A DNA stretch of 64,000 nt from contig JAJZIX010000001.1 in assembly GCA_021810345.1 (NCBI GenBank), positions 7,847 through 71,846 of the forward strand. The letters run 5' to 3'. Below are positions 26,620-55,004 of the stretch, piece by piece (position 1 is the stretch's first letter; each line of letters starts with the position of its first letter). The notes beneath the pieces are model-generated. The model saw only the letters and a program-made list of their open reading frames with translations, did not search any database and was not told where the DNA came from. The position numbers and the translations under genes are program-made. Source of the stretch: Nanobdellota archaeon (GTDB lineage Archaea; Nanobdellota; Nanobdellia; Parvarchaeales; Parvarchaeaceae).

Positions 26620-26702
26620 GCAGAGGTAGCGAAGCGGTCAAACGTGTAAGGCTAAGGACCTTATGGCTCAGGCCTTCGAGGGTTCAAATCCCTCCCTCTG
26701 CA
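26620..26702 (+). tRNA. class II tRNA (long variable arm), Leu-like, apparent anticodon AAG
   Basis: Hand-folded cloverleaf. Acceptor GCAGAGG/CCTCTGC. D-stem with a G-T pair. Anticodon stem TAAGG/CCTTA. Loop CTAAGGA. 14-nt variable arm. T-arm GAGGG-TTCAAAT-CCCTC. Differs at 4 positions from the copy at 51290. May be a degenerate duplicate. Confidence 0.65.
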
Positions 26703-26750
26703 TTTTTTGTCTGATGAAAACCATTTATCCATTCTCTCTATCCTTGTTGT

Positions 26751-26813
26751 ATGAGTCCCCCACGAAGGTCCCAATCAGCACTGGAGTACATGATGATGAC
26801 TATATCCATTTAA
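26751..26813 (+). pseudogene. 20-codon remnant of a pilin-family gene (MSPPRRSQSALEYMMMTISI*)
   Basis: Shares the conserved promoter/5' region and the first 16 codons with the pilin genes at 30660 and 51420. Truncated by a stop after codon 20. Confidence 0.55.
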
Positions 26814-27035
26814 AGCCTTCTGTCCTGCTAGCTGTTAGGAATATGGCCTACAATAATAGTATGTCTTCAGTGAGCTTCGGAAGCGTTTCTTAAAACTCTT
26901 TAATTTAATTTTCTAAACTTCTGCAACAACCATAAACGTGGGTTTTTTGCTAATCCCGTGGCAATTCAATCATAAAAAAGGTTAAATACTTGTAAAAGAT
27001 TATGCTATATATAATTAAAAGAGTCGAGGTGAATT

Positions 27036-27434
27036 ATGGTAGATTTGTCTTTGGATGGCTTTTTGAACATTTTCAAGAAAAATGTTAAGATAGAGGATTC
27101 GAACGAGTACGTGGAGCTTGAGGTTAACCCGAGCGACAAGCCAGCTGCGAAAATTTTCGTCAAGTATTATGCTATAGTCAAGTTTGAGGATGTTTCTCCC
27201 ATACTAAATGACATAAGATCAGGTTACACAATAGCTTTTATAAAAGCAAAGGAACTCCGTGAGAAGGGCGGCCTGGACGAGCTTAAAAGAACGATTTCAA
27301 AGATAAAGAAGAGCGCAGACGCCTCAGAGGCGCAGGTGATAGGAGTAGATGAGGATTACATACTGGTTGTTCCAAACTTCGTGAAAGTGGAGAAAGGCCA
27401 GATCCTTCAAGATCAGCCTACAACCCAGTCTTAA
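27036..27434 (+). CDS. possible SepF-like (DUF552) FtsZ-interacting protein
   Basis: Central region KIFVKYYAIVKFEDVSPILNDIRSGYTIAFIKAKEL...AQVIGVDEDYILVVPNFVKV resembles the SepF fold pattern. ftsZ lies in the same window. Weak call. Confidence 0.35.
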   Translation: MVDLSLDGFLNIFKKNVKIEDSNEYVELEVNPSDKPAAKIFVKYYAIVKFEDVSPILNDIRSGYTIAFIKAKELREKGGLDELKRTISKIKKSADASEAQVIGVDEDYILVVPNFVKVEKGQILQDQPTTQS

Positions 27435-27444
27435 AGTTAGAGAA

Positions 27445-27762
27445 TCACTTTGCTTCAGCCGCAAGGTAAGCTGCAGCTATTGCAGTTTCATCGGATTGCT
27501 TTGGTATACTAAGCATGCTGACCTTTGATTTTATGTCTGCTATGTTCCCGATGGATCCGATTTTGCATACATTGAATCCGAAGCTTAGGTCCTCATACAT
27601 GTCGGCTGCGCTTTTATCGACTCCTACGATTTCCGGCGCTGCCGTATCCAGTATCTCCTTTACCTCGCTCAATGTTTTGACCCTGTGTATCTGCACAGCG
27701 TTTTCTATCATCACAGCGACTATTATCCTGCCTTCACTGAAGGCTATTCCTGCGGTTTTCAT
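27445..27762 (-). CDS. RNase H-like fold protein resembling YqgF/RuvC-like resolvase
   Basis: KTAGIAFSEGRIIVAVMIEN...APEIVGVDKS...DETAIAAAYLAAEA parallels YqgF (LAFDFGTKSIGVAV...PDEIIVGLP...DSASAVIILESY). The first acidic residue is not conserved. Confidence 0.3.
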   Translation of the reverse strand: MKTAGIAFSEGRIIVAVMIENAVQIHRVKTLSEVKEILDTAAPEIVGVDKSAADMYEDLSFGFNVCKIGSIGNIADIKSKVSMLSIPKQSDETAIAAAYLAAEAK

Positions 27763-28312
27763 AAATAAGAATCAATATTAATTCTTCAAAAAAGAACCTC
27801 TTGTTCTCCAACTTTTTGAATCTAAGTCCTATACTCTTTAATGATTTATAAACCTTTTGTATATCATAGGCTGTGGATAAGATCAAAAAAGCCTTTCCAC
27901 CAGGTTTAAGGTGATTTTTCAGGCCCTCAATGAATCGAATAGTGATCTCGCTGCCCCCAGGTCCACCGTAGAGCGCCTTTTCAATCGGCTCTTTCGCCTT
28001 TCCCGGTAGATAGGGAGGGTTGCAGTAAATGACATCGAATTTGCCGTTTATTCTCTTGAACAGATCCGATCTAACCGCAGAATAATTTGTTATGTTGTTG
28101 AGCTTTGCATTCTTTTTTATAAGGGACACCGCTTTGGGGTTTACATCGGCTAGGATCACGTGGTCTGCTTTGGCTGCGGCGTTAAGGCCTATCACTCCGC
28201 TGCCAGCGCATATATCTAATACTTCACCGTGTGCAAATTTCACGGCTTTAAGCATCAGTTCAGAATCCTCCCGCGGCGCATAAACCTCCTCAGAATCAAT
28301 CAGTTTTATCAT
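27734..28312 (-). CDS. HemK/Mtq2-family protein N5-glutamine methyltransferase-like
   Basis: SAM motif LDICAGSGVIGL and catalytic NPPY (DVIYCNPPYLP). 192 aa. Confidence 0.6.
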   Translation of the reverse strand: MIKLIDSEEVYAPREDSELMLKAVKFAHGEVLDICAGSGVIGLNAAAKADHVILADVNPKAVSLIKKNAKLNNITNYSAVRSDLFKRINGKFDVIYCNPPYLPGKAKEPIEKALYGGPGGSEITIRFIEGLKNHLKPGGKAFLILSTAYDIQKVYKSLKSIGLRFKKLENKRFFFEELILILIYENRRNSLQ

Positions 28313-28399
28313 ATTTGGCTTTACAGAATACTCATTAAGAGCATAGATTTATATGCAACTGCAGATTTAAATATAAATCAACGCATAAAATAAAATAAT

Positions 28400-28861
28400 A
28401 TGGAAAAGCATCAGTTGTATGTTTTGGCTGGGCTTTCAGTTTTTATAATTATAATGTTTCTTTTGGCTCCTGCTTTATCCGGCAAGCCAGTGGCCAAATC
28501 GGTGGTGGTATTGCCCTCATTGGCATGCTCCTCGTACAATTTAGGGTTCAATTACACTGGCCCAACATCAATAACAGCCGTCAAGAATGAGACTACATTT
28601 GGAAAATTTTACATCTATAATGAGGGTAATGTAACGGAGAATATAAGCATAGACGCTTCTCCCAAGCCGGGAGAGCCAATCAAGATAGTTAATGCTAACC
28701 CGTTTGAGGCCCAAGTTGGCAATGCAGCTTATTACACGGAGTTTGTCGTCCAGAATCCGTTGGTAGCGGGTAATTATTCCGTAAATGTTAACCTGACCTC
28801 TTCTTATCTAAACTGCTCTAAATCCAAAGTGTTCACCGTGAATGTGTCTGTTCCGTCTTAA
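28400..28861 (+). CDS. secreted or membrane-anchored protein with N-glycosylation sequons
   Basis: N-terminal signal/anchor LYVLAGLSVFIIIMFLLAPALSG. Several N-x-S/T sites. Confidence 0.4.
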   Translation: MEKHQLYVLAGLSVFIIIMFLLAPALSGKPVAKSVVVLPSLACSSYNLGFNYTGPTSITAVKNETTFGKFYIYNEGNVTENISIDASPKPGEPIKIVNANPFEAQVGNAAYYTEFVVQNPLVAGNYSVNVNLTSSYLNCSKSKVFTVNVSVPS

Positions 28862-28863
28862 AA

Positions 28864-29205
28864 ATGGAAAACATCCCAATAAAGGATACTTCGCTTGATG
28901 AGCTGTCTACTGCCGATACAAAGGTCAGGTTTGTTGCAAAAGTCACCAAAAAAGACGATAAGATAGGCACTTTCGAAGTAGAGGACAGAGGGAAATCAAT
29001 AGTCTGCCTTCCTCCTCCGATAGGCGACTTCAGCGTTAAAGAAGGTGACCTGCTCGTGATAACCGGCAGGGTTGCCCCATCGGACGGCAGCGAGGTTGAG
29101 CTGAGAACTGAATACGTAAAAAAGATAGGAGCAGAAGATTATAAGAACTACGACAAGTATTTAAAGATAAGGAAAGAATTATTAAATGATGGAAGCGGAG
29201 TTTAA
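28864..29205 (+). CDS. OB-fold nucleic-acid-binding protein (RPA/SSB-like), upstream of PCNA
   Basis: VRFVAKVTKKDDKIGTFEVEDRGKSIVCLPP...GDLLVITGRV is an OB-fold anticodon-binding-like pattern. 113 aa. Confidence 0.35.
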   Translation: MENIPIKDTSLDELSTADTKVRFVAKVTKKDDKIGTFEVEDRGKSIVCLPPPIGDFSVKEGDLLVITGRVAPSDGSEVELRTEYVKKIGAEDYKNYDKYLKIRKELLNDGSGV

Positions 29206-29929
29206 GGACATAGATCTGTTTAAGAAGATAATGGATGCTGTCGGAGCGTTGATGTCAGACGTTTCCCTAGATTTTGATGAAAATGGATTCAGCATAAAAG
29301 CGATGGATCCCGCGAATATTGCAATGGTGCTTTTCGAGGGCAAAAAGAACATATTCTCATCATTTGTGGTGGACAAAAGCACAAAGCTTTCAGTTTCGCT
29401 CGATGACCTTAATAGTATACTCAGAATGATAAAAAAGGAAGATAAGATAAGGCTTTCAGATTCGAAAAACAAGCTGAGCATAGACATCAAGGGAAAGAAC
29501 AAGATGCATTTTTCGATACCGTTAATAGATGAAAACTACACCGCGCAAAAAGTACCACAGCTGAAATTCACCGCCGATTTCTCTGCTTTGGGCAGCATGG
29601 TAAAAGACGCAATAAAGGCTGCAAGCCTGGTCGATGATTCGGTCTACTTTACAGTCGATGGACAAAGGCTCATAATAGGCTCGAGGAATGAGGAGAAAGA
29701 GTTCTCCGAGGAAGTTTCTATGAACGAAAACAAGGAGCTTTTTGACATAAAATCTGAAGGAACGACAAGGGCTAAGTACTCGATAGAATACTTGATAAAG
29801 ATACTCGGGATCGTGGATCCAGACAAGCCTGTAAAGATGTCGTTTTCCAACAATTACCCAATGAAGCTGGACTACGAGATAAATCCGGATGCTAACATGT
29901 CGTTTATCCTGGCAAACAGGATAGAATGA
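29186..29929 (+). CDS. pcn: DNA polymerase sliding clamp PCNA
   Basis: Collinear similarity to archaeal PCNA: FSIKAMDPANIAMV (ISMRAMDPSRV), PLIDENYTAQKVPQLKFTA (PLIDVEEMEVDLPELPFTA), MSFILANRIE C-terminus. 247 aa. Confidence 0.85.
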   Translation: MMEAEFKDIDLFKKIMDAVGALMSDVSLDFDENGFSIKAMDPANIAMVLFEGKKNIFSSFVVDKSTKLSVSLDDLNSILRMIKKEDKIRLSDSKNKLSIDIKGKNKMHFSIPLIDENYTAQKVPQLKFTADFSALGSMVKDAIKAASLVDDSVYFTVDGQRLIIGSRNEEKEFSEEVSMNENKELFDIKSEGTTRAKYSIEYLIKILGIVDPDKPVKMSFSNNYPMKLDYEINPDANMSFILANRIE

Positions 29930-30373: not shown

Positions 30374-30435
30374 TTATCCTTCAGCGTTAAGGCTTATAAA
30401 ACAGAAAAACCCTCTGATTATATAAATCTTGCAGA

Positions 30436-30509
30436 GCATCGGTAGTCCAGTGGTAAGACACCACCCTGCCACGGTGGTAACCCGGGTCCGAATCCCGGCC
30501 GATGCACCA
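30436..30509 (+). tRNA. tRNA-Gly (anticodon GCC), CCA encoded
   Basis: Acceptor GCATCGG/CCGATGC. Anticodon stem CCACC/GGTGG. Loop CTGCCAC. T-arm CCGGG-TCCGAAT-CCCGG. 3' ACCA. Confidence 0.8.
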
Positions 30510-30623
30510 TTTATTAAATCGTTGCTGCGGTTTTTCTGGCCGCAGTGTCATGCTACTCTTCTTATCCTCCTCTTCTTTCGTCTATACCCGCAAAGCAGCA
30601 GAATTTGGCTGTTGTGGCATATG

Positions 30624-30638
30624 AAAACTATTTATTTA
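30624..30638 (+). promoter_or_regulatory. conserved BRE/TATA-like element (AAAACTATTTATTTA) about 25-35 nt upstream of the pilin ATG
   Basis: The same element recurs upstream of the pilin-family starts at 26751 and 51420. The spacing suggests leaderless or short-leader transcripts. Confidence 0.35.
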
Positions 30639-30659
30639 CTCTCTCCTTTTCTCTCTTAT

Positions 30660-31772
30660 ATGAGTCTCCCACGAAGATCCCAATCAGCATTGGAGTACAT
30701 GATGACTTATGGTTGGGCCATACTGGTCATTGTGATAGTTGCAGGGGTCTTGTACAGTCTAGGTATCTTTTCCCCTTCATCATCGCTGTCAACAACAATA
30801 ACAGGCTTCTCAGGCTTAGGAGTAACTCAAGCTGGATGCGTGAACTCAGTAAACAACCAAATTCTTGAATTGTATGTCACAAACACAGTCGGTTATCCAG
30901 TAAACATAACAAAAATTAACACTACAGGTAACAACGGCGTAGATGCTTCACAAAATGTAAGCTCGATCTTAGGCGATGGGGACTCTGCGGTGTTTTATAT
31001 CAATGGCGCATGCAACAAGTCTTCTTCTTATGGCGGGTCGGTTACTATAACATATACAGAGCCAGGACAAGCCCTTCCAGGGCCTTATTCTTCAACCGGT
31101 AGAGTAGCCAATGTCCTAGTCTCATCTAACTCAAATTTAGTTGCCAGTTTTAATGGTGTTAACTCATTCATAAATGCTTCTTTGAAACAAGAGCCGATCG
31201 GTAAATCTGTCAGAACTGCTATAATGTGGTTTTATGACAGTAATTCAGCCAATAAGCAACATGTATTTGCATATGGCTGTGGAGGTGGATCTTGTGGCGG
31301 AGGTAAATATTTCACGGTTTATATCTCAAATGGTGACTTAACCCTGAATGCGTATTACACCAATCAGGGCGTTTACTCACCAATACAAAATAACACTTGG
31401 TACTTTTTGGTCTATGAATATAATGGCACGGCACAGATAGGCTATGTTGGTTACGCTGGGAATCTTTATAGTGTATACGGAAATTATAATTATAATACAA
31501 CCCAAACGCCTTTGTATATAGGGTGTGAGGGAAATGATAATGGTGCGGTGTGTAATTCTCAGTTTTGGTATGGGTATATCTCCAATTTTCAGTTATACGA
31601 TCAAGCTTTATCAGCAAGGCAGATTACAGACCTATATAAAAGTGGTATGGGAGCTGCACCGCTTTCTAATAGTGGATTAATAAGCTGGTATCCTTTAGAT
31701 GGAAACGCGAATGATTACAGTGGCCAAAATAACAACGGTGTAGCTACCAACGTTCAGTGGGTCTCTACTTAA
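30660..31772 (+). CDS. type IV pilin-like/adhesin protein with a class III signal peptide and a C-terminal LamG-like domain
   Basis: MSLPRRSQSALEYMMTYGWAILVIVIVAGVLYSLGIFSP has a charged n-region, QSALEY and a hydrophobic helix. Secreted-type S/T/N/G-rich composition with many sequons. C-terminus NFQLYDQALSARQITDLY...WYPLDGNANDYSGQNNNGVATNVQWVS resembles LamG_3 motifs. The tracker ORF from 30429 is a spurious extension across tRNA-Gly. Confidence 0.7.
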   Translation: MSLPRRSQSALEYMMTYGWAILVIVIVAGVLYSLGIFSPSSSLSTTITGFSGLGVTQAGCVNSVNNQILELYVTNTVGYPVNITKINTTGNNGVDASQNVSSILGDGDSAVFYINGACNKSSSYGGSVTITYTEPGQALPGPYSSTGRVANVLVSSNSNLVASFNGVNSFINASLKQEPIGKSVRTAIMWFYDSNSANKQHVFAYGCGGGSCGGGKYFTVYISNGDLTLNAYYTNQGVYSPIQNNTWYFLVYEYNGTAQIGYVGYAGNLYSVYGNYNYNTTQTPLYIGCEGNDNGAVCNSQFWYGYISNFQLYDQALSARQITDLYKSGMGAAPLSNSGLISWYPLDGNANDYSGQNNNGVATNVQWVST

Positions 31773-31805
31773 TTGTTCTATTATAATAAGGTGTAGTCAT
31801 CGGCT

Positions 31806-32126
31806 CTATTCTTTTTTTCTGTGTGTAAGTCTATACAGGTAGAACCAATTCCTTATGTTGTTTATCTTCCTTATAATCTGAGAAGGACCTACGAAAAACA
31901 ACACTAACACAACAATAGAGGCCACTGCGATAATAAGCGTATAAGGGTTGAGAAGCCCTATGTACGACAGGCCTCCAAACACCAGAAATGTAGTTATCAA
32001 TCCTGCGTCCTTTCTGTAAGTGTAGGTTATAGCTACAGCAAAGGCGACTATACCTATAAAACCATAGAAGAGAATTGGCTCATTGTACTGCATTGAGAGT
32101 ATTATTGCTGCGAGTACGTTGCTCAT
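31806..32126 (-). CDS. small membrane protein (three TM helices)
   Basis: Hydrophobic profile only. Confidence 0.35.
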   Translation of the reverse strand: MSNVLAAIILSMQYNEPILFYGFIGIVAFAVAITYTYRKDAGLITTFLVFGGLSYIGLLNPYTLIIAVASIVVLVLFFVGPSQIIRKINNIRNWFYLYRLTHRKKE

Positions 32127-32766: not shown

Positions 32767-32767
32767 T

Positions 32768-34141: not shown

Positions 34142-36406
34142 CTAATCAGCCTGCTGATTGCTTAATATGTGCCTAAGCTTTTCGTTCGTTTTGTACACTC
34201 TGGCCTTAAGCTTGTCGCTCATCGGTATGTTGTTTTCATACATGTAGGAGACCATTCTTTCCAGAAACAGCTTTGTGGCTATTTTTTCTATCGTTGATCC
34301 GCCGTTTACCTTTAAAGTATAATCTAACGCGGTTTCCGGCACCGCTTCAAATATTACGTATTTGGTTCCAATAGTCTCTGGGTCTTCTGGTACATAAAGC
34401 GCCGCATACCCGCGCGGTGACGGGCCTTTCTTTATGATATCCCTCTCAAAAGACGTGTAATCCTGGTAAGCGAAAGGCTTTGCAGCCACAAGTGTCTTTT
34501 CATCGCCTTTATCATCTTTCTTCACGACTATGTTTAGATGCAGCATATGCTCATCTCCGGCGAACTGTAGATATGCATCCGTTCCGGTGTTCTCTATCAG
34601 GTCTATATTAGCTCTACCGCCGTCCCTACCTCCATGGTATCCAGTAGTATGCAGAGCGTTTGCTTTATAGCCGAAAATTTCGTATTTTTCGCCTCTGAAC
34701 CTCAATTCATCGGGATAATCAACCTTATTGCCGCCTATATGCTCAAACGCTCCACCTATCATGTCGGCTTCATTTGCATGCAAGGCTGCCTTTGCAACAT
34801 GGTTCCCATTTACGAATGCAATTCTGGATGATAGTTTTGCTATGTTGTTGATAACCTTGTAGGTCTCCTTAAGCTGTGCGCCAAGGTTCTGTATTGAGAC
34901 AGAGTACACGCTCTCCCTCAGCTCATTCAAAATCTTGTCATAATCAGGATGGTCGGAAGCGGACACCAGACTTTCGAGTGACCTGCTGTATCCAAGCCTC
35001 TTGTTGTCAATTATATCAGATCTTGCCGCCTTATCGATGCCCCCCTGTGCTAAATCACCCAAAAACAGAGTATATCTATCTTTGCTATCCAGCTTGTCAT
35101 GTGCTATATCAAGTGAGGTTGCCTCAAGAAGCTCATATGCAGTTTTCTGTTCATTGACGCTCGGCGCTCCAACATGCGTGTCGCCTACTAAGATTATTTT
35201 CTTCATGTTCTTCTCTATAGCGAATGGGCCCCCGCCAGATTTTATCAGCGAGTGGCTTATGTGTCTTACGTAGGCTCTCCCATCGTTGCTTATGGAAAAC
35301 AGTACAACTCCCGTGTCAAATGGCTGATCCAGCCTCTTTGAATCGACGCTCTTTCCCCAGCTTTCACTCCTTTTTGTGAGGGCATTTAGATCCTGTAGCG
35401 GCGGCGTGGCCAAAAGCCAAATCGGCTTGCTGTCTTCGACCTCAATTGCGGTGAAGTCAAGCATGGATTCATGTGTTCTGACATAAACATCATCCACCTT
35501 ACCGTTTATTGTATAATCCTTGTGTATCTGATCTATCATTCTTTTCTGGCCGTTTATTAGCGGGGTAACGAATGAGTTTCCGTTATACCTTCCGTTTACG
35601 GCATGCATGACATTGAACTTGACTCCATTTATTTCAAACCTGTTTACAAGGTTATTTGATATTATAACCTTGTTCTTCTTGTTGCCTTCAGAGTATGTCA
35701 GCATCTCCACGAGTTTATTGTTGTAAAGCCTCACAGCTACATCTTTTATACCCGTTTTATCTTTATTTTTCCATTTCGAGACCCCAAAGCTGTCATTGTC
35801 CTCTATGAATGATATTATTGATTGATCTATGTCTTTGTTGTCGGAGAAGATCTCCTTTAAGCTTTTTGCTGCTTTCTTTCCTTTTTTACTTCTGCGCTTT
35901 GATGCTTTTTGTACTTTCTCAAGGGCGGTTATTATCATCTGTACGTTATTATAATCCTTATCTGATATAACATACTCTATTGGTATCCTTTTCTCGTAAG
36001 CAATCTTTAGTATATCCATCAGGGAGTAGTGGGCCAGGGCAAATGCCTCATAAAGGGTGTCGACTCCGCCGTCCTTCCCTTTGTATTTTCCCCTTACGTT
36101 TTCATATATTTCGGTGCCGTATCTTTCGTTTATCCTGTCTTCAAGAAGGTCTATGTACTCTCCTTTCTGCTTACTGTACCTGTTAGCTACATATGGCATA
36201 CCGCCGTTTATGACTATCCTATCTATCTTGTATGGGCTTTCCCTTACAAGCTTTGCAATGTTCTTAAGTACCTCATAGTCCGCGAGTTTTGTGGCCAGCT
36301 CAAGCTCAGAGAGAAAAATGACGTTTGCTTTGATTTCCCTGCCATTGTCGGCTGGAAGCTTAGTTTTTACTTTCTCTTCTAGAAGTTTTTCTAATTCCCC
36401 CACCAT
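34142..36406 (-). CDS. 754-aa protein with a calcineurin-like metallophosphoesterase domain and large unassigned N- and C-terminal regions
   Basis: MPP motifs in order: ILVGDTHVG (GDxH), FLGDLAQGG (GDxxxxG), FVNGNHV (GNH), then HTTGYHGG and GDEHM. About 390 aa upstream of the domain have no recognised family. Confidence 0.55.
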   Translation of the reverse strand: MVGELEKLLEEKVKTKLPADNGREIKANVIFLSELELATKLADYEVLKNIAKLVRESPYKIDRIVINGGMPYVANRYSKQKGEYIDLLEDRINERYGTEIYENVRGKYKGKDGGVDTLYEAFALAHYSLMDILKIAYEKRIPIEYVISDKDYNNVQMIITALEKVQKASKRRSKKGKKAAKSLKEIFSDNKDIDQSIISFIEDNDSFGVSKWKNKDKTGIKDVAVRLYNNKLVEMLTYSEGNKKNKVIISNNLVNRFEINGVKFNVMHAVNGRYNGNSFVTPLINGQKRMIDQIHKDYTINGKVDDVYVRTHESMLDFTAIEVEDSKPIWLLATPPLQDLNALTKRSESWGKSVDSKRLDQPFDTGVVLFSISNDGRAYVRHISHSLIKSGGGPFAIEKNMKKIILVGDTHVGAPSVNEQKTAYELLEATSLDIAHDKLDSKDRYTLFLGDLAQGGIDKAARSDIIDNKRLGYSRSLESLVSASDHPDYDKILNELRESVYSVSIQNLGAQLKETYKVINNIAKLSSRIAFVNGNHVAKAALHANEADMIGGAFEHIGGNKVDYPDELRFRGEKYEIFGYKANALHTTGYHGGRDGGRANIDLIENTGTDAYLQFAGDEHMLHLNIVVKKDDKGDEKTLVAAKPFAYQDYTSFERDIIKKGPSPRGYAALYVPEDPETIGTKYVIFEAVPETALDYTLKVNGGSTIEKIATKLFLERMVSYMYENNIPMSDKLKARVYKTNEKLRHILSNQQAD

Positions 36407-37729: not shown

Positions 37730-37785
37730 ACTGAGATATGTATATTAATTATCAAATCTAATTTAAATATAGTATTTTAGGCTTT

Positions 37786-37858
37786 GGGTCCATGGTCTAG
37801 TGGTTATGACGTCTGCTTGACGTGCAGAAGGCCGGGAGTTCAAATCTCCCTGGGCCCA
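37786..37858 (+). tRNA. tRNA-Val (anticodon GAC)
   Basis: Acceptor GGGTCCA/TGGGCCC. Anticodon stem TCTGC/GCAGA. Loop TTGACGT. T-arm GGGAG-TTCAAAT-CTCCC. Confidence 0.8.
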
Positions 37859-37866
37859 TCTATTAC

Positions 37867-39993
37867 CTAGCTGCATACACTACTAATTGAGAAGTTTATA
37901 GTCTGGTTAGATCCGCCTGGCAGAGTCCCATTTTTTGGGCAGGGATAATACTCTTTTCCGCTGTATTCTGATGGGTAAACTACAAATCTGCCGCCGCCTT
38001 CCCCTACGTAAAAGGTGAGGTTTTCTACCGAGGCCGTGGATTTGTTAATGTCCTTATAACTTACATTGAAATAAGCTCCAGAAGGAAGACCGCTTTCTGT
38101 AAAGACAGATGTGCAGTTATAGATTTCATTGTACCCCACTTTAAGCGCATCGCCGGCAGTCAATGACCCAGAGCCTGTTGATGGATTATATTCTATTATA
38201 CAGCCAGAGTGCAGGTAGTCTATGTACGAGCTGTAGACTTTAAATTGGTGCGATCCAGTAGCCGTTGAAAATGAAATCGCAGATGAAGAACCAGTGTCAT
38301 TTATTCCGTTGTAATTTACCGTCCAGTTGAGGCCGTAAGGCAGAGCCGATTGGTAAAAGACGGAGACATTCTCAGAGCATGAGGCTGACGTAGAGTACTG
38401 TATAGTTATTGTTGATCCGGCCGCAGAGTAACCCGAAGCAGGGCATGGATAGTAATTCGAGCCGGAGTAGGAGGTGGAATCCACTGAGAATGAATATTTC
38501 CCTTGGGGGGATATTGCTGTTATATTGTCTGGCGCGCTTGATGTCAGCAAGTTGCTGTTGAAATCAACACTCCAGCTTGCACCATTAGGGAGACCGATTT
38601 CATTGAAGATAGTGAAGCAGGAGGTTGTAGTCCCGTAGAAAATCGGGAGTGAACTGCCGGCTTGCAGGGTCCCTTGGGCCGTGGTGGAATACTCATCCTT
38701 GCATCCACCGTGAAATGCAGCTGGAGACGCAAGTGAATAGCTATAATCCCCGGGGGCGGTGGTGAATGAAATAAAAGAGGAGGTAGAGCTGATATTCTCC
38801 CCATCATACTCAACCCACCATTGTGTGCCGTTCCTCATATCGAACGCGTCGAATATGGTTGTGCAGAGGTTTGATTTTGAATTGCAGCTGCTTGTTGTCA
38901 CACTCTGGTTCCATTGCCCGTGCTGCTCTGCGGATACATTTATCGGCAAAGCGGGACTGGCATTGACATCTTTGTATGGCAGCAGATCTATTGATGAGTT
39001 AAGGGGAGTCCATGCGGTTACATTCCATGTTGGGGAGGTGACATAAGCCCCGCTTATCGAGACCGCACTCACGCCTCCAACGCATATATTTGTCCAGTCA
39101 ACGGCAACGTAATACAGCCCGGCCTTCGCAGTCACATATGCAGGCCCGTAGGTGCCTGCCGACTGGCCTTTCCATGAGGCATTGCCGAAAATTGAGACCC
39201 AACTCGATGAACTTGCGTTTCTGTAGAAAACTGCGCTTCCATCGTTCGTAAGTATGTTAAAGCTCACGTTTCCTGTGAAATACATCGCCTTTACTGCTGT
39301 GTATCCCTGCGTGTCATATGGCGCCCCGCAGTTCACATTTCCATTGTTTAGATCTGCAAGCGTGTTTGGGAAAGGCGAAGCAACCTGGCCAAGAAATATT
39401 CCGTTCGCATAGTACTCTTGTGTCTGGTAGGGCACGCCTATGTAAGGGGTGCCAAACGCGTAGGTATTTGATAAAAGCCCGGCTAAATTGCCTGATAACG
39501 TCGTCTGCATCGGGCCTGAGATCTTTCCTGTGGACAACAGTGTGCTTTTCAGCGGTGATTCTACTGATACATATGAGATCTCACCTGGAATTGAGTATGT
39601 GCTTTTGCCAGACTGGCAGACTCCAAGCACGACAAAAATCTGCGATCCTCCCGGAAGCAGCGACACATCATAGTGCTTTGATACAGCGGATCCATTCGGC
39701 TGGGTCAGGTTGAGGCTAGTCAGAATTATAGGCTGCCCCACTTCATTTGAGATTGACAGAAACATCCCAACCCCAGCTACGCATTCAGCCTGCACCTGGA
39801 ATCCGGAGAAGCCGGTGGTGACAGCCGTCAGGCTGGAGGAAGGTGTGAATACACCGAAAGAATAGAGGAAAGCTGCGACTATGACTATTATTATGATAGC
39901 CCAGCCATAGGTCAGCATATACTCCATAGATGACTGAGCGTTCTTGTTTTGTCTAAAAATAGACTTTCTTTTGCTCCAGTTTTTTGAGTGCAT
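37867..39993 (-). CDS. large pilin-like surface protein with a class III signal peptide, tandem beta-sandwich repeats and many N-glycosylation sequons
   Basis: N-terminus MHSKNWSKRKSIFRQNKNAQSSMEYMLTYGWAIIIIVIVAAF is the same leader family as the tRNA-linked pilins. S/T/N/G-rich. The C-terminal 250 aa carry three tandem repeats containing LPNGASWSVDFNSN, LPYGLNWTVNYNG and LPSGAYFNVSYKD. Confidence 0.65.
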   Translation of the reverse strand: MHSKNWSKRKSIFRQNKNAQSSMEYMLTYGWAIIIIVIVAAFLYSFGVFTPSSSLTAVTTGFSGFQVQAECVAGVGMFLSISNEVGQPIILTSLNLTQPNGSAVSKHYDVSLLPGGSQIFVVLGVCQSGKSTYSIPGEISYVSVESPLKSTLLSTGKISGPMQTTLSGNLAGLLSNTYAFGTPYIGVPYQTQEYYANGIFLGQVASPFPNTLADLNNGNVNCGAPYDTQGYTAVKAMYFTGNVSFNILTNDGSAVFYRNASSSSWVSIFGNASWKGQSAGTYGPAYVTAKAGLYYVAVDWTNICVGGVSAVSISGAYVTSPTWNVTAWTPLNSSIDLLPYKDVNASPALPINVSAEQHGQWNQSVTTSSCNSKSNLCTTIFDAFDMRNGTQWWVEYDGENISSTSSFISFTTAPGDYSYSLASPAAFHGGCKDEYSTTAQGTLQAGSSLPIFYGTTTSCFTIFNEIGLPNGASWSVDFNSNLLTSSAPDNITAISPQGKYSFSVDSTSYSGSNYYPCPASGYSAAGSTITIQYSTSASCSENVSVFYQSALPYGLNWTVNYNGINDTGSSSAISFSTATGSHQFKVYSSYIDYLHSGCIIEYNPSTGSGSLTAGDALKVGYNEIYNCTSVFTESGLPSGAYFNVSYKDINKSTASVENLTFYVGEGGGRFVVYPSEYSGKEYYPCPKNGTLPGGSNQTINFSISSVCS
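37870..38616 (-). repeat. three tandem 78-86-aa protein-coding repeats (GLPxGxxWxV...YYPCP... modules) within the surface protein gene
   Basis: Repeat units start at FNEIGLPNGASW, FYQSALPYGLNW and FTESGLPSGAYF. Each carries the YSxS...YYPCP/C-rich tail. A fourth degenerate unit is possible upstream. Confidence 0.5.
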
Positions 39994-46014: not shown

Positions 46015-46089
46015 GGGGCGGTGATCTAGTTTGGTTATGATGCCAGCCTAGGGCGCTGGATGTCCTGGGTTCAAATCCCAGCTGCCCCA
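46015..46089 (+). tRNA. tRNA-Pro-like, apparent anticodon AGG
   Basis: Acceptor GGGGCGG/CTGCCCC. Anticodon stem CCAGC/GCTGG. Loop CTAGGGC. T-arm CTGGG-TTCAAAT-CCCAG. The A at position 34 is unusual. Confidence 0.65.
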
Positions 46090-46133
46090 TCCCTTATTTG
46101 GGATAATGCTATCATATATCCACACACACAAAT

Positions 46134-46265
46134 ATGTCTCATAACACAAAAAGCCAGTCCGCCCTTGAATATTTAATGACGTATGGCTGGGCCATTTTGG
46201 TCATTGTCATCGTCGCAGGAGTCTTATACAGTCTAGGAATATTCTCACCGGGCTCATCTTGCTAA
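46134..46265 (+). pseudogene. 43-codon pilin-family fragment holding only the class III signal peptide and TM helix (MSHNTKSQSALEYLMTYGWAILVIVIVAGVLYSLGIFSPGSSC*)
   Basis: Near-identical to the N-termini of the 30660 and 51420 pilins. It stops right after the conserved SLGIFSP motif. Located 45 nt downstream of tRNA-Pro. Confidence 0.5.
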
Positions 46266-46291: not shown

Positions 46292-46840
46292 TTATAATTT
46301 AAAACTCTCTACTCCAGAATAACTAGGGTACGACATGCTTATTGTTAGATTTGACCACGTAGAAATCGGGACGGGGTTTATGGTGATCGTACTGCCAGAT
46401 ATTTGAATATTACCGTACATGATATCTAAAATATCCCCTTTTGAGATTGTTGCAGGGCCAGAACTCGCAAAAAATATCACGTAGCCTAGTCCGGCATTAC
46501 TTGAAACCCAAACCACGGGGTGGCCAGAGCTCTTTGACTGCACACCTTGATTGCTGGCCCAAGATATCGTGTAGCTTCCGGCTAGTTCTGAGGTTTTGAT
46601 AGAATTCATATACATGGAGATGTGATCTTCATCCATCGATGTAGGATTGATAAAGGTAACCACTAAATTGACGGCTGCAGTAACTGAACTTGAGCCAGTG
46701 TCGTTCCCATTCGACGAGAATGTCATATTCAGGGGACTGCCACCCAATCCGCCACCATGGCCGGCTAAGAAATAGATGGATAGGGACACGGCTACGATGA
46801 TGACTGCAGCTACTGGCAAATACACTGTTTTAATATCCAT
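46292..46840 (-). CDS. secreted or surface protein (N-terminal signal anchor, S/G-rich)
   Basis: MDIKTVYLPVAAVIIVAVSLSIYFLAG anchor. Sequons NMT, NDT and NLT. Confidence 0.4.
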   Translation of the reverse strand: MDIKTVYLPVAAVIIVAVSLSIYFLAGHGGGLGGSPLNMTFSSNGNDTGSSSVTAAVNLVVTFINPTSMDEDHISMYMNSIKTSELAGSYTISWASNQGVQSKSSGHPVVWVSSNAGLGYVIFFASSGPATISKGDILDIMYGNIQISGSTITINPVPISTWSNLTISMSYPSYSGVESFKL

Positions 46841-46865
46841 ACTTTATTCTTTTGATCTCATAGTT

Positions 46866-47180
46866 TTAAGGATTGTAGCCGGAGTATTTGGCCGCATAAT
46901 CCGCTATGACGGGGATTTCTGTATCCTCGCCGTAATACGCTTTTACTGCGATGTACATTCCATAGATAAAGATTAGGAAGACCACGGGCGAACCAAGAAA
47001 AGGCACAAAGACCAAAATAAAATCCAAAACTATGGCGATAATTCCCAGGAATATGGCTTGCAATGAATGAAATTTCAGTCGCTTGTCCTTTTGGCCAGCC
47101 GTAAAAAACATGATTATGCCACTGAGCCACATAAAAAGATATACAAAAATATACGCGATATTTTTTTTCTCTTTCTCCAT
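46866..47180 (-). CDS. small integral membrane protein (three TM helices)
   Basis: Hydrophobic profile. Confidence 0.4.
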
Positions 47181-47284
47181 AATATCTATAATTTATGCGG
47201 TTATTTAAATGTATACTTTTCACTAAATAGCATTATCTCCCCATCCCTTATTCGGGATATAGATGTCAAAGACAGACATAAGAA

Positions 47285-48609: not shown

Positions 48610-49452
48610 ATGGAAAAGATGAAAATAGGACTGACCGAGGGATTTTACAGCTATGACTATGGCAGCCCAGAGCATATTTTTTACTTGATAGACGAGCACA
48701 AAGGAAAGAACCTAGACATGCTTGTGGGGCCTGAATGGGGTTTAAACGCAAAACCTGAAGGACTTTATTACCGCCGAAAGTTCAAAAACCTGGATGATTT
48801 TATAGACAACGCGTTTACAGCCGAGACAAAGATATCCGATTATGCACCGAAAGACGCTAAATCTGTCCTGTTGAAAAACCGCGACAGGCTTAGGTTTAGC
48901 ACGCTTAATAACATCCCCTACTCTGAAGCGGAGGCGCATAGAGTCATAGACGCATTGAAAGAGCACAGCAAAAATTGTGATACGCTTATACTCCCAGGGA
49001 CTATGGTGTCATATGACAACAAAGGAAGATTGTCGAATTATATGCCGGTTATACAAAACGGGAAACATTTGAAAAATATATACAAAATAAGCGACGGAGG
49101 TACGCGCTTTTTCAGTCTTTTTGGTGTATTAGAATTTGCGATTAATGAGGACGAATGCGATATCGAGCGTTTTGTCCCAAAGAACAATGTGCTTTATGCA
49201 GACAACAAAAAAATTGGGGTTGAGATATGCGCGGATTCCGGCCGTCTGAGAGAGGTCGGTGTAAAAGATCTGGACCTACAGGTTTTATCTTCGTGTGGAA
49301 ATTATACGATTGAGCCGGCCGTTGAAGAAGGAAAGTATGTCGTCTGTGCAGATGGTGCTAGTGGCAATTATTTCGTCAAAAAATTGTATGGTAAAGAGAT
49401 AAAAAAGAAGTCTGATGGCTTACTTAGCGTCTTTACTGCCAAGCTGTTTTAA
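48610..49452 (+). CDS. carbon-nitrogen hydrolase (nitrilase superfamily) family protein
   Basis: Candidate catalytic triad in context: LVGPEW (Glu), YRRKFKNL (Lys) and KIGVEICADSG (Cys). Confidence 0.5.
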   Translation: MEKMKIGLTEGFYSYDYGSPEHIFYLIDEHKGKNLDMLVGPEWGLNAKPEGLYYRRKFKNLDDFIDNAFTAETKISDYAPKDAKSVLLKNRDRLRFSTLNNIPYSEAEAHRVIDALKEHSKNCDTLILPGTMVSYDNKGRLSNYMPVIQNGKHLKNIYKISDGGTRFFSLFGVLEFAINEDECDIERFVPKNNVLYADNKKIGVEICADSGRLREVGVKDLDLQVLSSCGNYTIEPAVEEGKYVVCADGASGNYFVKKLYGKEIKKKSDGLLSVFTAKLF

Positions 49453-51171
49453 TCCCATAGAATTCTTTATTTCATTGATGGCCAGTATTATACCAGCGTG
49501 TGCAAAACCCTGCGGGTAATTGCCAAGGAAATCCTCGTTTTCCACGTCCACATGCTCGCCCACTAACCCGCTTTTTTTGCCTATCTTTGCAAGGTTCTGG
49601 ATGATGCCGATCGCTTCATTGTTCCTACCCTCCAGAGCATATATCTGGCTTAGCCATCCAGAGCACAGGGAAAAGGGATGCTTGGCCTCCCCCATGCTAT
49701 CGTGCCTGTACCTGAATACGTAGCCTCCAAGCACCAGGTCCTTCTCTATTTTCTTGAGCGTGCTACTGAACAGAGGATTTGTCGCCTCAATAAACCCGAC
49801 TATTGGTATGTTAAGCAGGGCTGCATCAACCTGGTCAGTCCCGGGGTATTTGGAGAAATACCCATTTACGGTGCAGTTTTCCATTGTCCATTTTTTTATC
49901 TCATCAGCTTTATCATGCCATCTGTCGCGCATCCCCAACTCAATGGCTATTTTTCCTGCTTTGTCCAAAGTGGACCACATCATCACCTTAGAAAATGTGA
50001 ATTCCCTTTTTTCACTCTCTTCCCACAATCCGGCGTCGCTCAGTTTCCAGTTCTTTGAGACCCAGTCTGCACAGTATTCAACAGCCCATATCGATTCAGA
50101 CAAAAATGCCTTGTCTTTTGTTTCGCTGTAGTAAGTGTAAAGTGCATTGATAAAGAAACCTTCAACGTCAAGCTGCACCTGTTTGTATGCCGAGTTTCCT
50201 ACTCTTACAGGCTTGGAGCCGTTGAATCCACTGAGCCAGTCTATTGTTCTTTCAGGCGTTGGCGATGAGCCATCCAGTTCGTAGACCGGCTGGCTGAACG
50301 GTTTTCCGGAGAAATCCATTATTCTCATTAGAAACTGGATTATTTTCTTGCCCTCCTTCGGGAGGCCGGCTCTTATCAGCGCTTGCGACATTATGCATGA
50401 ATCCCTTACCCATATGAAGCGGTAGTCCCAGTTCCTGCTTTCTCCAATGGCCTCCGGCAGTGAAGTTGTAGGGGCGGAGACAGGCGCTCCCGACGGCGCA
50501 AAAAATAGACCCAAAATAGCCGATATGGATGAGGAATAGATCTTTGAGAGGCTGTTTAGGCCCTCTCCCGGCAGATTGCTGCTTTCCCACAAAGATTTGG
50601 GCAGGAGGTGCTCCCAATATTTTATCGACCTCTCCTGGCCTTCTTTTGGATATGAAAAGATTATCTCTTTCTCACTGAACAGCCCTTTAGAAACATCCTG
50701 CGAGTATAGAAGGTAAATATACCCCTTTCCCGGTTTGATTAAAATAGAGCTTCCATTGATTTTTGGCTTTAGCCCGAATGTTTTCACTTCTATGCCTTCT
50801 GCAACGCCTGGAAGTGTGAATTTTATACCATCTTTTTTAACCTCTGCATTTAGCTTTGATCTGCCATAGTCAAAAGTTGGAGAAAGACTTATCTCAAGAT
50901 CAATGCTGCTTTCTACCTCCCGTATCAGCGCACTTTGACCAAAAGGCATGAAGTCTGTGATCTTTGCCGTCCCCTTTATGGTCTCAAAAGTTGTCTCCAG
51001 TATGTTTGGTGCGGTATACCTCTGGGAGATTTTTGCTTCGTCCTGAATCTTAATGTCGAAAGAGCCCCCTTTCTCCTCATCCAGAAGCTTTGAGAATATG
51101 GGGGAGCTATCAAACCTTGGCATCGTGCACCAGACTACCTCACCTGAAAGTGATATTAATGCTCCGCTCAT
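49420..51171 (-). CDS. glycoside hydrolase family 15 (glucoamylase/trehalase-like)
   Basis: WDYRFIWVRDSCIMSQALIRAG and NYPQGFAHAGIILAINE are GH15 signature regions. Start placed at MSGALISLSGEVVW. The tracker ORF extends to 51246. Confidence 0.75.
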   Translation of the reverse strand: MSGALISLSGEVVWCTMPRFDSSPIFSKLLDEEKGGSFDIKIQDEAKISQRYTAPNILETTFETIKGTAKITDFMPFGQSALIREVESSIDLEISLSPTFDYGRSKLNAEVKKDGIKFTLPGVAEGIEVKTFGLKPKINGSSILIKPGKGYIYLLYSQDVSKGLFSEKEIIFSYPKEGQERSIKYWEHLLPKSLWESSNLPGEGLNSLSKIYSSSISAILGLFFAPSGAPVSAPTTSLPEAIGESRNWDYRFIWVRDSCIMSQALIRAGLPKEGKKIIQFLMRIMDFSGKPFSQPVYELDGSSPTPERTIDWLSGFNGSKPVRVGNSAYKQVQLDVEGFFINALYTYYSETKDKAFLSESIWAVEYCADWVSKNWKLSDAGLWEESEKREFTFSKVMMWSTLDKAGKIAIELGMRDRWHDKADEIKKWTMENCTVNGYFSKYPGTDQVDAALLNIPIVGFIEATNPLFSSTLKKIEKDLVLGGYVFRYRHDSMGEAKHPFSLCSGWLSQIYALEGRNNEAIGIIQNLAKIGKKSGLVGEHVDVENEDFLGNYPQGFAHAGIILAINEIKNSMGLKQLGSKDAK

Positions 51172-51289
51172 CTGATTACTTATAAATGACAGGTCCTTCA
51201 AGCGCATGATTACCCTTATAATATAATGCTTTATATTGGTTTTCATGCACTGAAAAGTTAATATTGGTGTGGATCTAAAAAGCAGTGTT

Positions 51290-51372
51290 GCAGGGGTAGC
51301 GAAGCGGTCAAACGCGTAAGGCTTAGGACCTTATGGCTCAGGCCTTCGAGGGTTCAAATCCCTCCTCCTGCA
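51290..51372 (+). tRNA. tRNA-Leu (anticodon TAG), class II
   Basis: Same scaffold as the tRNA at 26620 but with a canonical D-stem (GCG/CGC) and loop CTTAGGA. Acceptor GCAGGGG/CTCCTGC. Confidence 0.8.
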
Positions 51373-51384
51373 TTTTGGTTCAAT

Positions 51385-51399
51385 AAAAACTATTTATTC
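51385..51399 (+). promoter_or_regulatory. conserved BRE/TATA-like element (AAAAACTATTTATTC) upstream of the pilin gene
   Basis: Homologous to the elements at 30624 and 26716. Confidence 0.35.
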
Positions 51400-51419
51400 A
51401 TTCTCTTTACCTCTATTAT

Positions 51420-52556
51420 ATGAGTCTCCCACGAAGATCCCAATCGGCATTGGAATACATGATGACGTATGGCTGGGCCATACTGGTAATCGTCATCGTC
51501 GCAGCAGTCCTGTATTCCTTAGGTATCTTCTCTCCTGCATCGTCTTTATCTCTTACAGTAACAGGATTCTCAGGTTTTGTAGGTACTCAGGCCGACTGCA
51601 CTCCATCAGGTGTATTGGTCCTATCACTCAACGATGCGCTCGGAAATCCTGTTTTCATAAAATATGCAAATTCAACATACAATGGCAAAACCTTCTCATC
51701 AAACGTTTCTGAGACTATACTCCCAGACTCTTCCGGTAAGATACTTATACTTAACGGCTGCGTCAACTCATCAAATGTTCATTTTTCATCCACAGTGACG
51801 CTGGAATACACAGAGCCCGGCCAACCCCTGCCTGGGCCTTATATAAGTACAGGTTATATCACAGGCACTACTTCCTCATTCGTACAGAATACAGTCTCAG
51901 AGTTCATTGTAAATCAAAGTCAAATATACATACCAAATTCAACTACTACTTATAATATGTGGCAGGGTGGGCCTTATACCTTGTCATCTTGGGTGAATTT
52001 GACATCTGATACTGCATCATGTCAGCATTATCCTTGTGTAGCTCTTATCCAGGTTGAATTTGGCTGCACATCCGGCGTACAAGACTTCGCGGCAAATTCA
52101 AGTGGTTTTTGGACAAATGAATTAGAGTGGAATGTCACTCACACCTCGTGTACATCCGGTCAGACATCTCCATCAATTTTCGTTCCTTTTGATAAATGGG
52201 CACTTATAACTGGAATCTTCGGGTATAATAGTTCATCCTCTAGCTATTATGTTGAAATCTGTGTGGATGCAAAATGTGATGAAAATCCTTATACTCTTGA
52301 TCATCCCGGTTACCAAGGTACAGGCGCAACGGCAATCGGTGCATACCAGTTATCTGGCAGAATAGCAAATGTCCAACTCTATAGTTTTGCACTTTCCCAT
52401 AATCAGATTCAGACAATGTATGATGAAGGATACGCAGGTATACCCCCAACTACCAATGGATTAGTGGCATGGTATCCTTTGGATGGCAACGCGAATGATT
52501 ATTCTGGTAATAATAACAATGGCGTTGCAACAAATGTTCAGTGGGTATCACCTTGA
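51420..52556 (+). CDS. type IV pilin-like/adhesin protein, class III signal peptide plus LamG-like C-terminus (paralog of 30660)
   Basis: MSLPRRSQSALEYMMTYGWAILVIVIVAAVLYSLGIFSPASS. The C-terminus LVAWYPLDGNANDYSGNNNNGVATNVQWVSP is about 85% identical at DNA level to the 3' end of 30660..31772. The middle is divergent. Confidence 0.7.
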   Translation: MSLPRRSQSALEYMMTYGWAILVIVIVAAVLYSLGIFSPASSLSLTVTGFSGFVGTQADCTPSGVLVLSLNDALGNPVFIKYANSTYNGKTFSSNVSETILPDSSGKILILNGCVNSSNVHFSSTVTLEYTEPGQPLPGPYISTGYITGTTSSFVQNTVSEFIVNQSQIYIPNSTTTYNMWQGGPYTLSSWVNLTSDTASCQHYPCVALIQVEFGCTSGVQDFAANSSGFWTNELEWNVTHTSCTSGQTSPSIFVPFDKWALITGIFGYNSSSSSYYVEICVDAKCDENPYTLDHPGYQGTGATAIGAYQLSGRIANVQLYSFALSHNQIQTMYDEGYAGIPPTTNGLVAWYPLDGNANDYSGNNNNGVATNVQWVSP

Positions 52557-55001: not shown

Positions 55002-55004
55002 TCT

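Follow-up and report, generated by a model that had tools for sequence, protein, structure and literature searches.

Why should genes for surface proteins lie directly behind tRNA genes in the genome of an archaeon? The question is raised by a stretch of 64,000 nucleotides (nt) from a metagenome-assembled genome (MAG) of an acid-mine archaeon of the family Parvarchaeaceae (Nanobdellota; assembly GCA_021810345.1, contig JAJZIX010000001.1, positions 7,847 to 71,846), hereafter the window, in which members of a family of pilin-like proteins with a lectin domain accompany tRNA genes for leucine, glycine, valine and proline. A first-pass annotation had described four such sites, each with a tRNA gene, a conserved promoter and leader of 80 nt and a pilin-like gene, and had suggested that the start of the gene is itself a target of site-specific recombination, as in tRNA-linked integration or cassette exchange, or that the genes ride on tRNA promoters. 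We favour, with moderate confidence, the reading that these lectin-pilin genes form adhesin islets of one gene each in the 3′ flanks of tRNA genes, that the islets bring no integrase with them, and that the flanks serve as turnover sites of accessory DNA with this family as the main cargo.

Family genes on the 3′ side of tRNA genes

Eight tRNA genes were called in the window with ARAGORN and Rfam:

26620..26702, plus strand: tRNA-Leu(AAG), 94% identical to the tRNA-Leu(TAG) at 51289
30436..30509, plus strand: tRNA-Gly(GCC)
37785..37860, plus strand: tRNA-Val(GAC)
46015..46089, plus strand: tRNA-Pro(AGG)
51289..51373, plus strand: tRNA-Leu(TAG)
53803..53919, plus strand: tRNA-Trp(CCA), intron-containing, the right-hand breakpoint of an inversion in the related locus L008 and the anchor of a variable island
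60008, minus strand: tRNA-Lys(CTT)
60748: tRNA-Val(TAC)

The two leucine tRNA genes and those for glycine, proline and valine had been annotated correctly before, and the tRNA-Trp gene had been missed. Default ARAGORN overlooks intron-containing tRNAs of this kind, namely tRNA-Trp (in the window and in the related loci L008 and L009) and tRNA-Leu(CAA) (in L042). The 80 loci fetched from the genome collection were therefore rescanned for tRNAs with introns allowed and, in addition, with Rfam, and the two agreed except for the tRNA-Leu(CAA) of L042, which Rfam missed. As an aside, tRNA-Leu(AAG) and tRNA-Pro(AGG) both have an A at position 34, which is unusual among archaea; because the two leucine tRNAs are 94% identical, one of their anticodons probably arose by a single base change after duplication.

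A six-frame motif search of the window for class III signals located four open reading frames (ORFs) that begin with such a signal, and together with one further remnant they make up five family members or remnants, which sit in the 3′ flanks of five different tRNA genes:

26716..26895, plus strand: pseudogene remnant of a family gene of the 464-amino-acid (aa) type, with both gene ends kept
30660..31772, plus strand: 370-aa modular pilin-like protein, with class III signal, alpha-helix, beta-sandwich, LamG lectin domain (PF13385) and conserved C-terminal motif
39993..37867, minus strand: 708-aa family member with the common signal and N-domain and a long repeat-rich C-terminal part, convergent with tRNA-Val(GAC)
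46134..46265, plus strand: truncated family gene of 43 codons, with signal and helix only and a distinct upstream sequence of its own
51420..52556, plus strand: modular pilin-like LamG protein of 378 aa, found in each of the 10 strain contigs examined

The two full-length genes and the two short ones, the remnant at 26751 stopping after 20 codons and the gene at 46134 after 43, are as the first-pass annotation had them; the fifth member, placed there 9 nt from tRNA-Val, has its stop codon 6 nt from the 3′ end of that tRNA. Downstream of the truncated gene at 46134 no family-like sequence was found.

With all five members in 5 of the eight tRNA 3′ flanks, out of about 70 intergenic slots in the window, the hypergeometric probability of this arrangement is p = 4.6e-6, and it is still p = 7.6e-5 when the two tRNA-Leu units are taken as one event; the link to tRNA genes noted earlier is thus not due to chance. 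The same MAG contig has two more members 2–12 kb before the start of the window, one of them behind a tRNA-Thr gene and the other, P0033, without a tRNA neighbour.

Relatives were collected by scanning one genome per species, which gave at least 553, and 80 loci with about 84 family genes were fetched, almost all from Parvarchaeota-type DPANN MAGs. Counting as adjacent a family gene within 300 nt of a tRNA, we found 16 on the tRNA 3′ side and 3 on the 5′ side in these loci. Six of the family genes have a co-oriented upstream tRNA at 44–183 nt (Trp, Gln, Glu, Leu(CAA), Thr and Leu(TAG)), and 10 of the 16 members on the 3′ side are convergent with the tRNA, which then lies 7–273 nt past their stop codon. 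In the source genome the count of 3′-side against 5′-side members is six to zero, and in an independent set of 80 metagenome loci it is five to zero. Combined, the count is 26 versus 3 (p = 1.5e-5), with both gene orientations and about 20 tRNA species represented, and it drops to 20 versus 3 (p = 5e-4) once likely orthologues, recognized by the same tRNA and the same orientation, are collapsed. The robust signal is thus this 3′-side bias together with the extreme clustering in the source genome.

Strain differences at the tRNA flanks

Comparison of strains, for which the earlier annotation had suggested looking for cassette swaps, revealed filled and empty states at tRNA-Thr, alternative content at tRNA-Gly and an additional segment at tRNA-Pro. 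At tRNA-Thr, contigs L087 and L088 carry a 464-aa family gene 94 nt past the tRNA, and a further 134 nt separate the gene from CGCCCGAGGCT, an exact 11-nt copy of the tRNA-Thr 3′ terminus followed by the native trailer of the tRNA. In L089 the tRNA is joined directly to this trailer, with no gene between them, and the 11-nt repeat sits exactly at the strain indel. Another species (L047) also has this succession of tRNA-Thr and gene, with the same spacer. When repeats of the tRNA end were sought beyond the far end of every tRNA-adjacent family gene and exact matches were scored against 200 random windows, only tRNA-Thr stood out, none of the random windows equalling its 11-mer; the repeat at tRNA-Pro emerged from a wider scan. 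On the same contig, P0033 (L087 10001-12510, about 2 kb upstream of the window start) is 87% identical to the gene at 30660 over its first ~500 nt, with an unrelated LamG part; the genes after it are an AbiEii-type toxin gene and a 199-aa ORF.

At tRNA-Pro the 3′ flank is an array of segments separated by a repeated site:

46085..46113, plus strand: first site copy, composed of CCCCA (the tRNA end), TCCCTTATTT and the right arm GGGATAATGCTATC
46292..47180, minus strand: two small ORFs of 182 aa and 104 aa, which occupy the first segment of 1.15 kb
47226..47268, plus strand: second site copy, an imperfect 14-15-14 palindrome of 43 nt, AATAGCATTATCTC / CCCATCCCTTATTC / GGGATATAGATGTC

The series CCCCA-TCCCTTATTT-GGGATAATGCTATC recurs at 47239-47268 as a repeat of 30 nt, of which 5 nt belong to the tRNA, and there has the inverted arm AATAGCATTATC in front of it. 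In half of the strains an extra segment of 2.3 kb lies between two such palindromic sites, and three states of the array were seen. This segment codes for a 673-aa repeat protein (L001 3616-5637, minus strand; 457 aa in L195) with at least five N-terminal repeats of about 45 aa (…AVIEAAKVISKYNGDAARDIA…), and the slot that it would fill is empty in the window at 47239-47268. Since the window's site at 47226-47268 is a left/right hybrid of the two sites that flank the 2.3-kb segment in other strains, the segment appears to be gained or lost by exchange inside the common 14 nt, CCCCATCCCTTATT. The 182-aa, 104-aa and 673-aa proteins returned nothing significant in Pfam, NCBIfam and PADLOC; one weak MamF_MmsF match is on record for the small ORFs.

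The right arm of the palindrome extends to a motif of 33 nt, GGGATAATGNYATCT-N5-AAATGGCACTA, which makes up the palindrome with an inverted partner and is found at other loci as well. It lies 7–11 nt past tRNA-Trp in L009 (2907) and tRNA-Gln in L031 (2783) and L045 (146), occurs in L025 (2909), where no tRNA was detected, and stands inverted at both ends of the 2.3-kb segment of L001 (3506-3547 and 5807-5848). The stretch upstream of a family gene begins with the motif in L009 and L025, and the start of a family gene lies about 170 nt past it in L031. As an exact pattern with 23 specified bases it had no match in IMG/VR or in the metagenome contig collection. The motif shows no RNA covariation and therefore looks like a protein-binding DNA site, for which we regard it as a candidate.

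The tRNA-Gly flank differs among strains by the content of one segment:

30567..31807, plus strand: strain-variable segment that contains the 370-aa gene, present in 7 of 10 strain contigs

In the other three contigs these 1241 nt are replaced by 106 nt ending in NVIYTSNYQTTD and a stop codon, the last 13 codons and thus the C-terminus of another subtype of the family. At the same site a sister species (L042) has a gene whose N-terminal 150 aa match that other subtype, the rest being masked in the stored sequence; this gene lies behind an extra 1.7 kb and the intron-containing tRNA-Leu(CAA).

The two tRNA-Leu units of the window are homologous to each other from the tRNA through the spacer. 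In L008 the block from the promoter of the 378-aa gene to tRNA-Trp is inverted relative to tRNA-Leu(TAG), with breakpoints at 51376/51387 and at 53919, the 3′ end of tRNA-Trp, and in L009 a family gene follows tRNA-Trp instead. Accessory DNA of another kind is also found there:

54035..60007: low-GC (guanine plus cytosine) island with glycosyltransferase, NUDIX-methyltransferase and HAD-like genes, of 33–35% versus 44% GC, between the 3′ ends of the convergent tRNA-Trp and tRNA-Lys genes and starting 115 nt past tRNA-Trp

In strain L191 other genes take over past 54034, among them one for an N6 DNA methylase with a TaqI_C domain; its 247-aa and 258-aa proteins had no PADLOC match. Assembly artefacts were considered as a source of these differences and rejected, every state being found again in several independent assemblies (ENA, NCBI and JGI).

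The remnant behind tRNA-Leu(AAG), which had been described as cut off after 20 codons, is an internal-deletion pseudogene. It retains the promoter (26716-26750), the first 15–16 codons (to 26796) and the last ~10 codons (26861-26892), its ends match the tRNA-Thr cassette of L087 (722-2354) at 87–88%, and about 1.3 kb has been deleted internally; as both the 5′ and the 3′ end of a 464-aa-type gene are kept, the sequence points to an internal deletion and not to a junction. In the distant MAG L081 a family gene likewise follows this tRNA-Leu, the one on the side of the gene for the beta subunit of phenylalanyl-tRNA synthetase (PheRS); the contig stops after the first 80 codons of the family gene. 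The adjacency at this PheRS-side tRNA-Leu is therefore old and inherited.

Taken together, these states suggest that accessory DNA is inserted, exchanged and lost at tRNA 3′ flanks in these compact genomes, and four routes can be discerned. One is insertion directed by the tRNA end, as the 11-nt duplication and empty site at tRNA-Thr and the tandem segments and 43-nt palindromic site at tRNA-Pro indicate. A gene can also be copied along with its tRNA, as in the Leu(AAG) and Leu(TAG) units, alleles can be replaced between strains through conserved flanks, as at tRNA-Gly, and genes can decay through deletion, to which the short copies at 26751 and 46134 bear witness. Two sites give evidence of arrival by recombination at the tRNA end, which would be an extrapolation for the remaining ones; tRNA co-copying, allele replacement and deletion decay are each documented once. 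A search for integrase or recombinase genes or domains, which the earlier annotation had called for, found none in the window or in the 21-kb locus L087, which overlaps the window start, and with no recombinase in or next to the cassettes the acting enzyme, if there is one, would have to work in trans.

Alternative readings and the promoter-leader block

Turnover at the tRNA flanks is the simplest reading under which genes in either orientation, the variety of tRNAs, the polymorphism among strains and the two cases bounded by repeats all find a place, and the part of the first-pass annotation that spoke of tRNA-linked integration or cassette exchange stands as far as the marks at tRNA-Thr, tRNA-Pro and tRNA-Gly are concerned. 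Several observations weigh against it, beginning with the lack of an integrase just noted. Repeats of the tRNA end were absent from the Gly, Leu(AAG), Leu(TAG) and Val sites of the window and from 14 other loci, which leaves 18 of 20 tRNA-adjacent sites without one. The distal boundaries at tRNA-Gly and tRNA-Thr are untidy, unrelated sequence having been replaced too, and the GC content of the cassettes is only slightly off that of their surroundings. The search of related genomes for further tRNA-linked units upheld the choice of side (21 on the 3′ side versus 3), with a modest rate of adjacency: near relatives show a moderate rise, with 19 of 84 genes versus a rough 9% expected, a figure that comes from an assumed ~45 tRNAs and 1000 genes per genome and was not measured, and the more distant metagenome set shows none, with 5 of 76. 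The loci compared are, moreover, not phylogenetically independent.

Some of these points favour a rival account, by which the arrangement would reflect chance and compactness, that is, a genome of ~1 Mb with very short spacers and a family that duplicates together with its neighbour tRNA, with no insertion bias and no recombination system. The homology of the two tRNA-Leu units from tRNA through spacer fits this account, as do the order of PheRS-side tRNA-Leu and pilin gene in the distant MAG, by which some adjacency is simply inherited, the unraised rate in metagenomes and the location of P0033 away from any tRNA. It does not readily explain why five different tRNAs of the window are involved, with p = 7.6e-5 even after the Leu pair is collapsed, why the 3′ side prevails by 26 to 3 in both orientations and across ~20 tRNA species, why an 11-nt repeat of a tRNA end falls exactly at a strain indel or why the palindromic site recurs in the tRNA-Pro array. 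We consider it unlikely.

A further possibility, which we put forward tentatively and likewise hold to be improbable at present, is that the Parvarchaeota possess a dedicated cassette system, in which a recombinase would act in trans and the 43-nt palindromic site would be the docking or exchange point for single-gene cassettes of lectin-pilin adhesins and other genes. If it were true, host-contact proteins could be shuffled between strains without an element-borne integrase, and the palindromic site may point to a recombination system that has not been described.

The proposal that the pilin start, promoter plus first codons, is a recombination target at which variable gene bodies are swapped depends on the nature of the conserved block. 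This block is present at 26716-26796, 30621-30707 and 51383-51467, three matches in the window versus none expected by chance, and hence at three of the four sites at which it had been reported. The tRNA-Pro copy has upstream sequence and first codons (MSHNTKSQSALEYL) unlike the block and has only a coding stretch in common with the other genes (46154-46260, 74–75% identity), and the 708-aa gene has yet another upstream sequence. The promoters of the two full-length genes that carry the block are:

30621..30659, plus strand: promoter of the 370-aa gene, its TATTTAT (30629-30635) lying 24 nt ahead of the ATG
51383..51419, plus strand: promoter of the 378-aa gene, its TATTTAT (51391-51397) lying 22 nt ahead of the ATG

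In pairwise comparisons of four paralogues of the source genome, homology always starts 34–39 nt before the ATG and extends to about +160, or to +498 for the gene at 30660 and P0033. An ungapped alignment of 20 family genes from ~8 Parvarchaeota genomes gave the consensus AAAacTATTTAT..acTCTct.T.TCTcTaTTaT/ATG, with an own TATA box 22–24 nt before the ATG in 20 of 20 genes. Mean pairwise identity, computed on 19 genes with the 26751 remnant excluded, is 27% at −60 to −40 and 65% at −39 to −1, and within the codons 91% at positions 1 and 2 and 53% at position 3. This dependence of conservation on codon position, together with the TATA spacing, identifies the block, from sequence comparison, as the family's own promoter and signal-peptide codons under ordinary purifying selection, conserved across species, and not as a recently spread repeat or a special unit. 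Judged by the usual archaeal distance from TATA box to start, transcription would begin at or next to the ATG, and the pilin mRNA is probably leaderless.

What speaks for the pilin start as a target is that all paralogue pairs have a sharply bounded common block, from about −39 to +160, that the genes are mosaic (P0033 and the gene at 30660 being alike over the first ~500 nt and divergent thereafter, and P0006 having the N-domain of the gene at 51420), and that two independent internal-deletion remnants of 464-aa-type genes, at 26751 and at L009 4246-4290, are both broken 2–5 nt past GAGTACATGAT (codons E-Y-M). Broken leaders nevertheless make up just 2 of 139, the other 137 continuing normally, the window remnant retains the gene 3′ end and so reflects an internal deletion, and the mosaic boundaries vary (+160, +498). 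Conservation that tracks codon position is what a functional signal peptide would show, the promoter part is explained by TATA spacing, and such repeats as do mark junctions are located farther upstream, at the end of the tRNA and at the palindrome (GGGATAATGNTATC, with the motif GGGATAATG). A recombination hot spot in the leader is a weak possibility, and the role of the pilin start as a site-specific target is quite improbable.

Least probable is dependence of the pilin genes on a tRNA promoter, or their co-transcription with the tRNA and release of the mRNA by RNase Z-type processing, for which the short co-oriented spacing of 44–48 nt after Leu(AAG), Leu(TAG), Leu(CAA) and Glu(CTC) could be cited: we rejected such riding or read-through on the fixed spacing of the genes' own TATA boxes and the 10 of 16 convergent cases, and T6 and T4 runs follow the two tRNA-Leu genes, and members without a tRNA (P0033, L008) keep the same promoter.

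Protein architecture, known parallels and gene setting

The family is large, fast-evolving and multi-copy and belongs to the Parvarchaeota (ARMAN-4/5-like DPANN archaea). A database search with the 378-aa protein gave 1282 hits, of which those with a named source are LamG domain-containing proteins of Candidatus Parvarchaeota or ARMAN-4, and identical proteins occur on MAG contigs of GCA_027370975.1 and related ENA/JGI assemblies. When 17 members are aligned, the N-terminal ~150 aa prove invariant and the middle, which is the LamG domain (PF13385), hypervariable, and they are followed by a conserved C-terminus, GLVGWWPLDGNANDYSGNNNNGVATNVxWVSP. The class III signal, RRS/QSALEY with Glu at +5, is followed by a hydrophobic alpha-helix; in the form MSLPRRS/QSALEYMMTYGWAILVIVIVAGVLY it is found in the four window genes and ~160 relatives, with a short charged leader, Q at +1, E at +5 and ~20 hydrophobic residues. 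No profile for a pilin or class III signal in Pfam or NCBIfam matched at E <= 0.01, and the lone pilin-type match was a non-significant one to TafC (15 bits versus a cutoff of 410). PF13385 (Laminin_G_3), which is present in most relatives, scores 38.7 bits in the gene at 30660, above the cutoff of 27.6, and 26.5 bits, slightly under it, in the gene at 51420.

An AlphaFold model (mean pLDDT 67) consists of a helix at 10-33, a beta-sandwich at 46-150 and a second beta domain. Its top match in the PDB is PilC of Streptococcus sanguinis (7OA8; E = 7e-4, TMq 0.29, 9% identity), a weak similarity, and its N-terminal part is matched by Pyrobaculum type IV pilins with a probability of 0.97-1.0 (TMt 0.40-0.43). 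The proteins are most likely adhesins that would be displayed on pili and make contact with a host cell. Genes for a prepilin peptidase or an assembly ATPase were absent from the window. ARMAN-type DPANN archaea live attached to other archaea, and their host range probably depends on surface adhesins.

With regard to architecture, the closest characterized counterpart is PilC itself, a type IV pilin of modular build that combines an Ig-like domain with a lectin module of ConA type (PMC9934059). Both start with a class III signal peptide and a short pilin moiety and have, in addition, a beta domain of Ig-like type and a ConA/LamG-type lectin module, whereas the Parvarchaeota family is archaeal, with many paralogues per genome and a conserved C-terminal motif, and the similarity is weak. 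In the DPANN archaeon Mia14, an ARMAN-2-related organism, LamG-like surface proteins have been described as expanded, with some of their genes located in genomic islands and close to type IV pilus loci, and host contact was proposed as their role (PMC5498576). That organism is a relative of the Micrarchaeota, not of the Parvarchaeota, and the tRNA link, the common promoter and the turnover at strain level are absent from the same paper; a survey of archaeal type IV pili likewise makes no mention of tRNA (PMC4858521).

With regard to genomic location, the arrangement resembles the genomic islands and integrative elements linked to tRNA genes in bacteria and archaea, which often carry fimbrial or adhesin genes, for instance KpGI-5 at a tRNA-Met gene of Klebsiella (PMC3419637). 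Both place accessory genes for surface adhesion directly 3′ of tRNAs, with a direct repeat of the tRNA end or flank at two sites, filled and empty strain states, possible tandem islets and alternative islands at one tRNA flank (tRNA-Trp). The Parvarchaeota islets differ in their cargo of a single gene (1.2–2.3 kb), in having no integrase in the element or nearby, in the ~20 tRNA species and both gene orientations involved, in the lack of a detectable repeat at most sites and in being embedded in a core region of ribosomal and RNA-polymerase genes. The earlier description of an undescribed way of diversifying adhesins was thus overstated: the pattern is that of genomic islets at tRNA flanks, and what is new is their minimal form, integrase-less single-gene adhesin islets in a DPANN archaeon. 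Strain-variable islets in the middle of the core genome offer a testable picture of how reduced genomes keep their host-contact repertoire variable.

Gene cassettes of integrons have reportedly been found in Archaea, and the tRNA-Pro array resembles them in its single-gene units split by a repeated imperfect palindrome, with one unit gained or lost inside the site, and in the same 33-nt end motif before different cargo (family genes in L009 and L025, the 673-aa repeat protein in L001). It differs from integrons in a site of 43 nt with 14-15-14 structure, in pilin cassettes that bring their own promoter and in the single array seen, with two units in a row; an IntI-type recombinase, an attI site and a Pc platform were not detected in the window or the fetched flanks. 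In the pilE/pilS system of Neisseria, a conserved N-terminus is combined with a variable C-terminal part, partial copies exist and genes are mosaic, the promoterless silent pilS donors holding the variable region. The Parvarchaeota family is similar in its conserved N-terminus, variable C-terminal part, several partial copies and mosaic genes, but in its partial copies promoter and 5′ end are retained and the variable part is gone, the reverse of silent pilS donors, and no single expression locus was seen. Silent donors of the pilS type were rejected on these grounds, the remnants being without the variable LamG part. No family member with a signal peptide was present in IMG/VR, which was searched for carriage by viruses.

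The setting of the window genes is otherwise one of core housekeeping functions, with ribosomal proteins, RNA polymerase subunits, aminoacyl-tRNA synthetases, PCNA, SepF, FtsZ and AdoMet synthetase. A 754-aa ORF at 34142-36406 (minus strand), between the genes for a DHH phosphoesterase and seryl-tRNA synthetase, is kept in all strains seen and has neither a Pfam or NCBIfam match nor a class III signal motif.

Within the family, the conserved C-terminus GLVGWWPLDGNANDYSGNNNNGV..WVSP (gene 3′ ends at 31666-31772 and 52450-52556) resembles the usual first strand of Laminin_G_3, and the Pfam LamG match spans profile positions 19-150 only. The strand-like motif could mean that the domain is circularly permuted, or that each protein lends a strand to an adjacent subunit. 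Tandem family genes are frequent in other genomes (L012, L013, L021, L044, L057 and L177, with up to four in a row in L177), and duplication in place is therefore another common mode of expansion. At one further locus, L028, a 5S rRNA gene (4479-4591) lies ~380 nt past the stop codon of a family gene.

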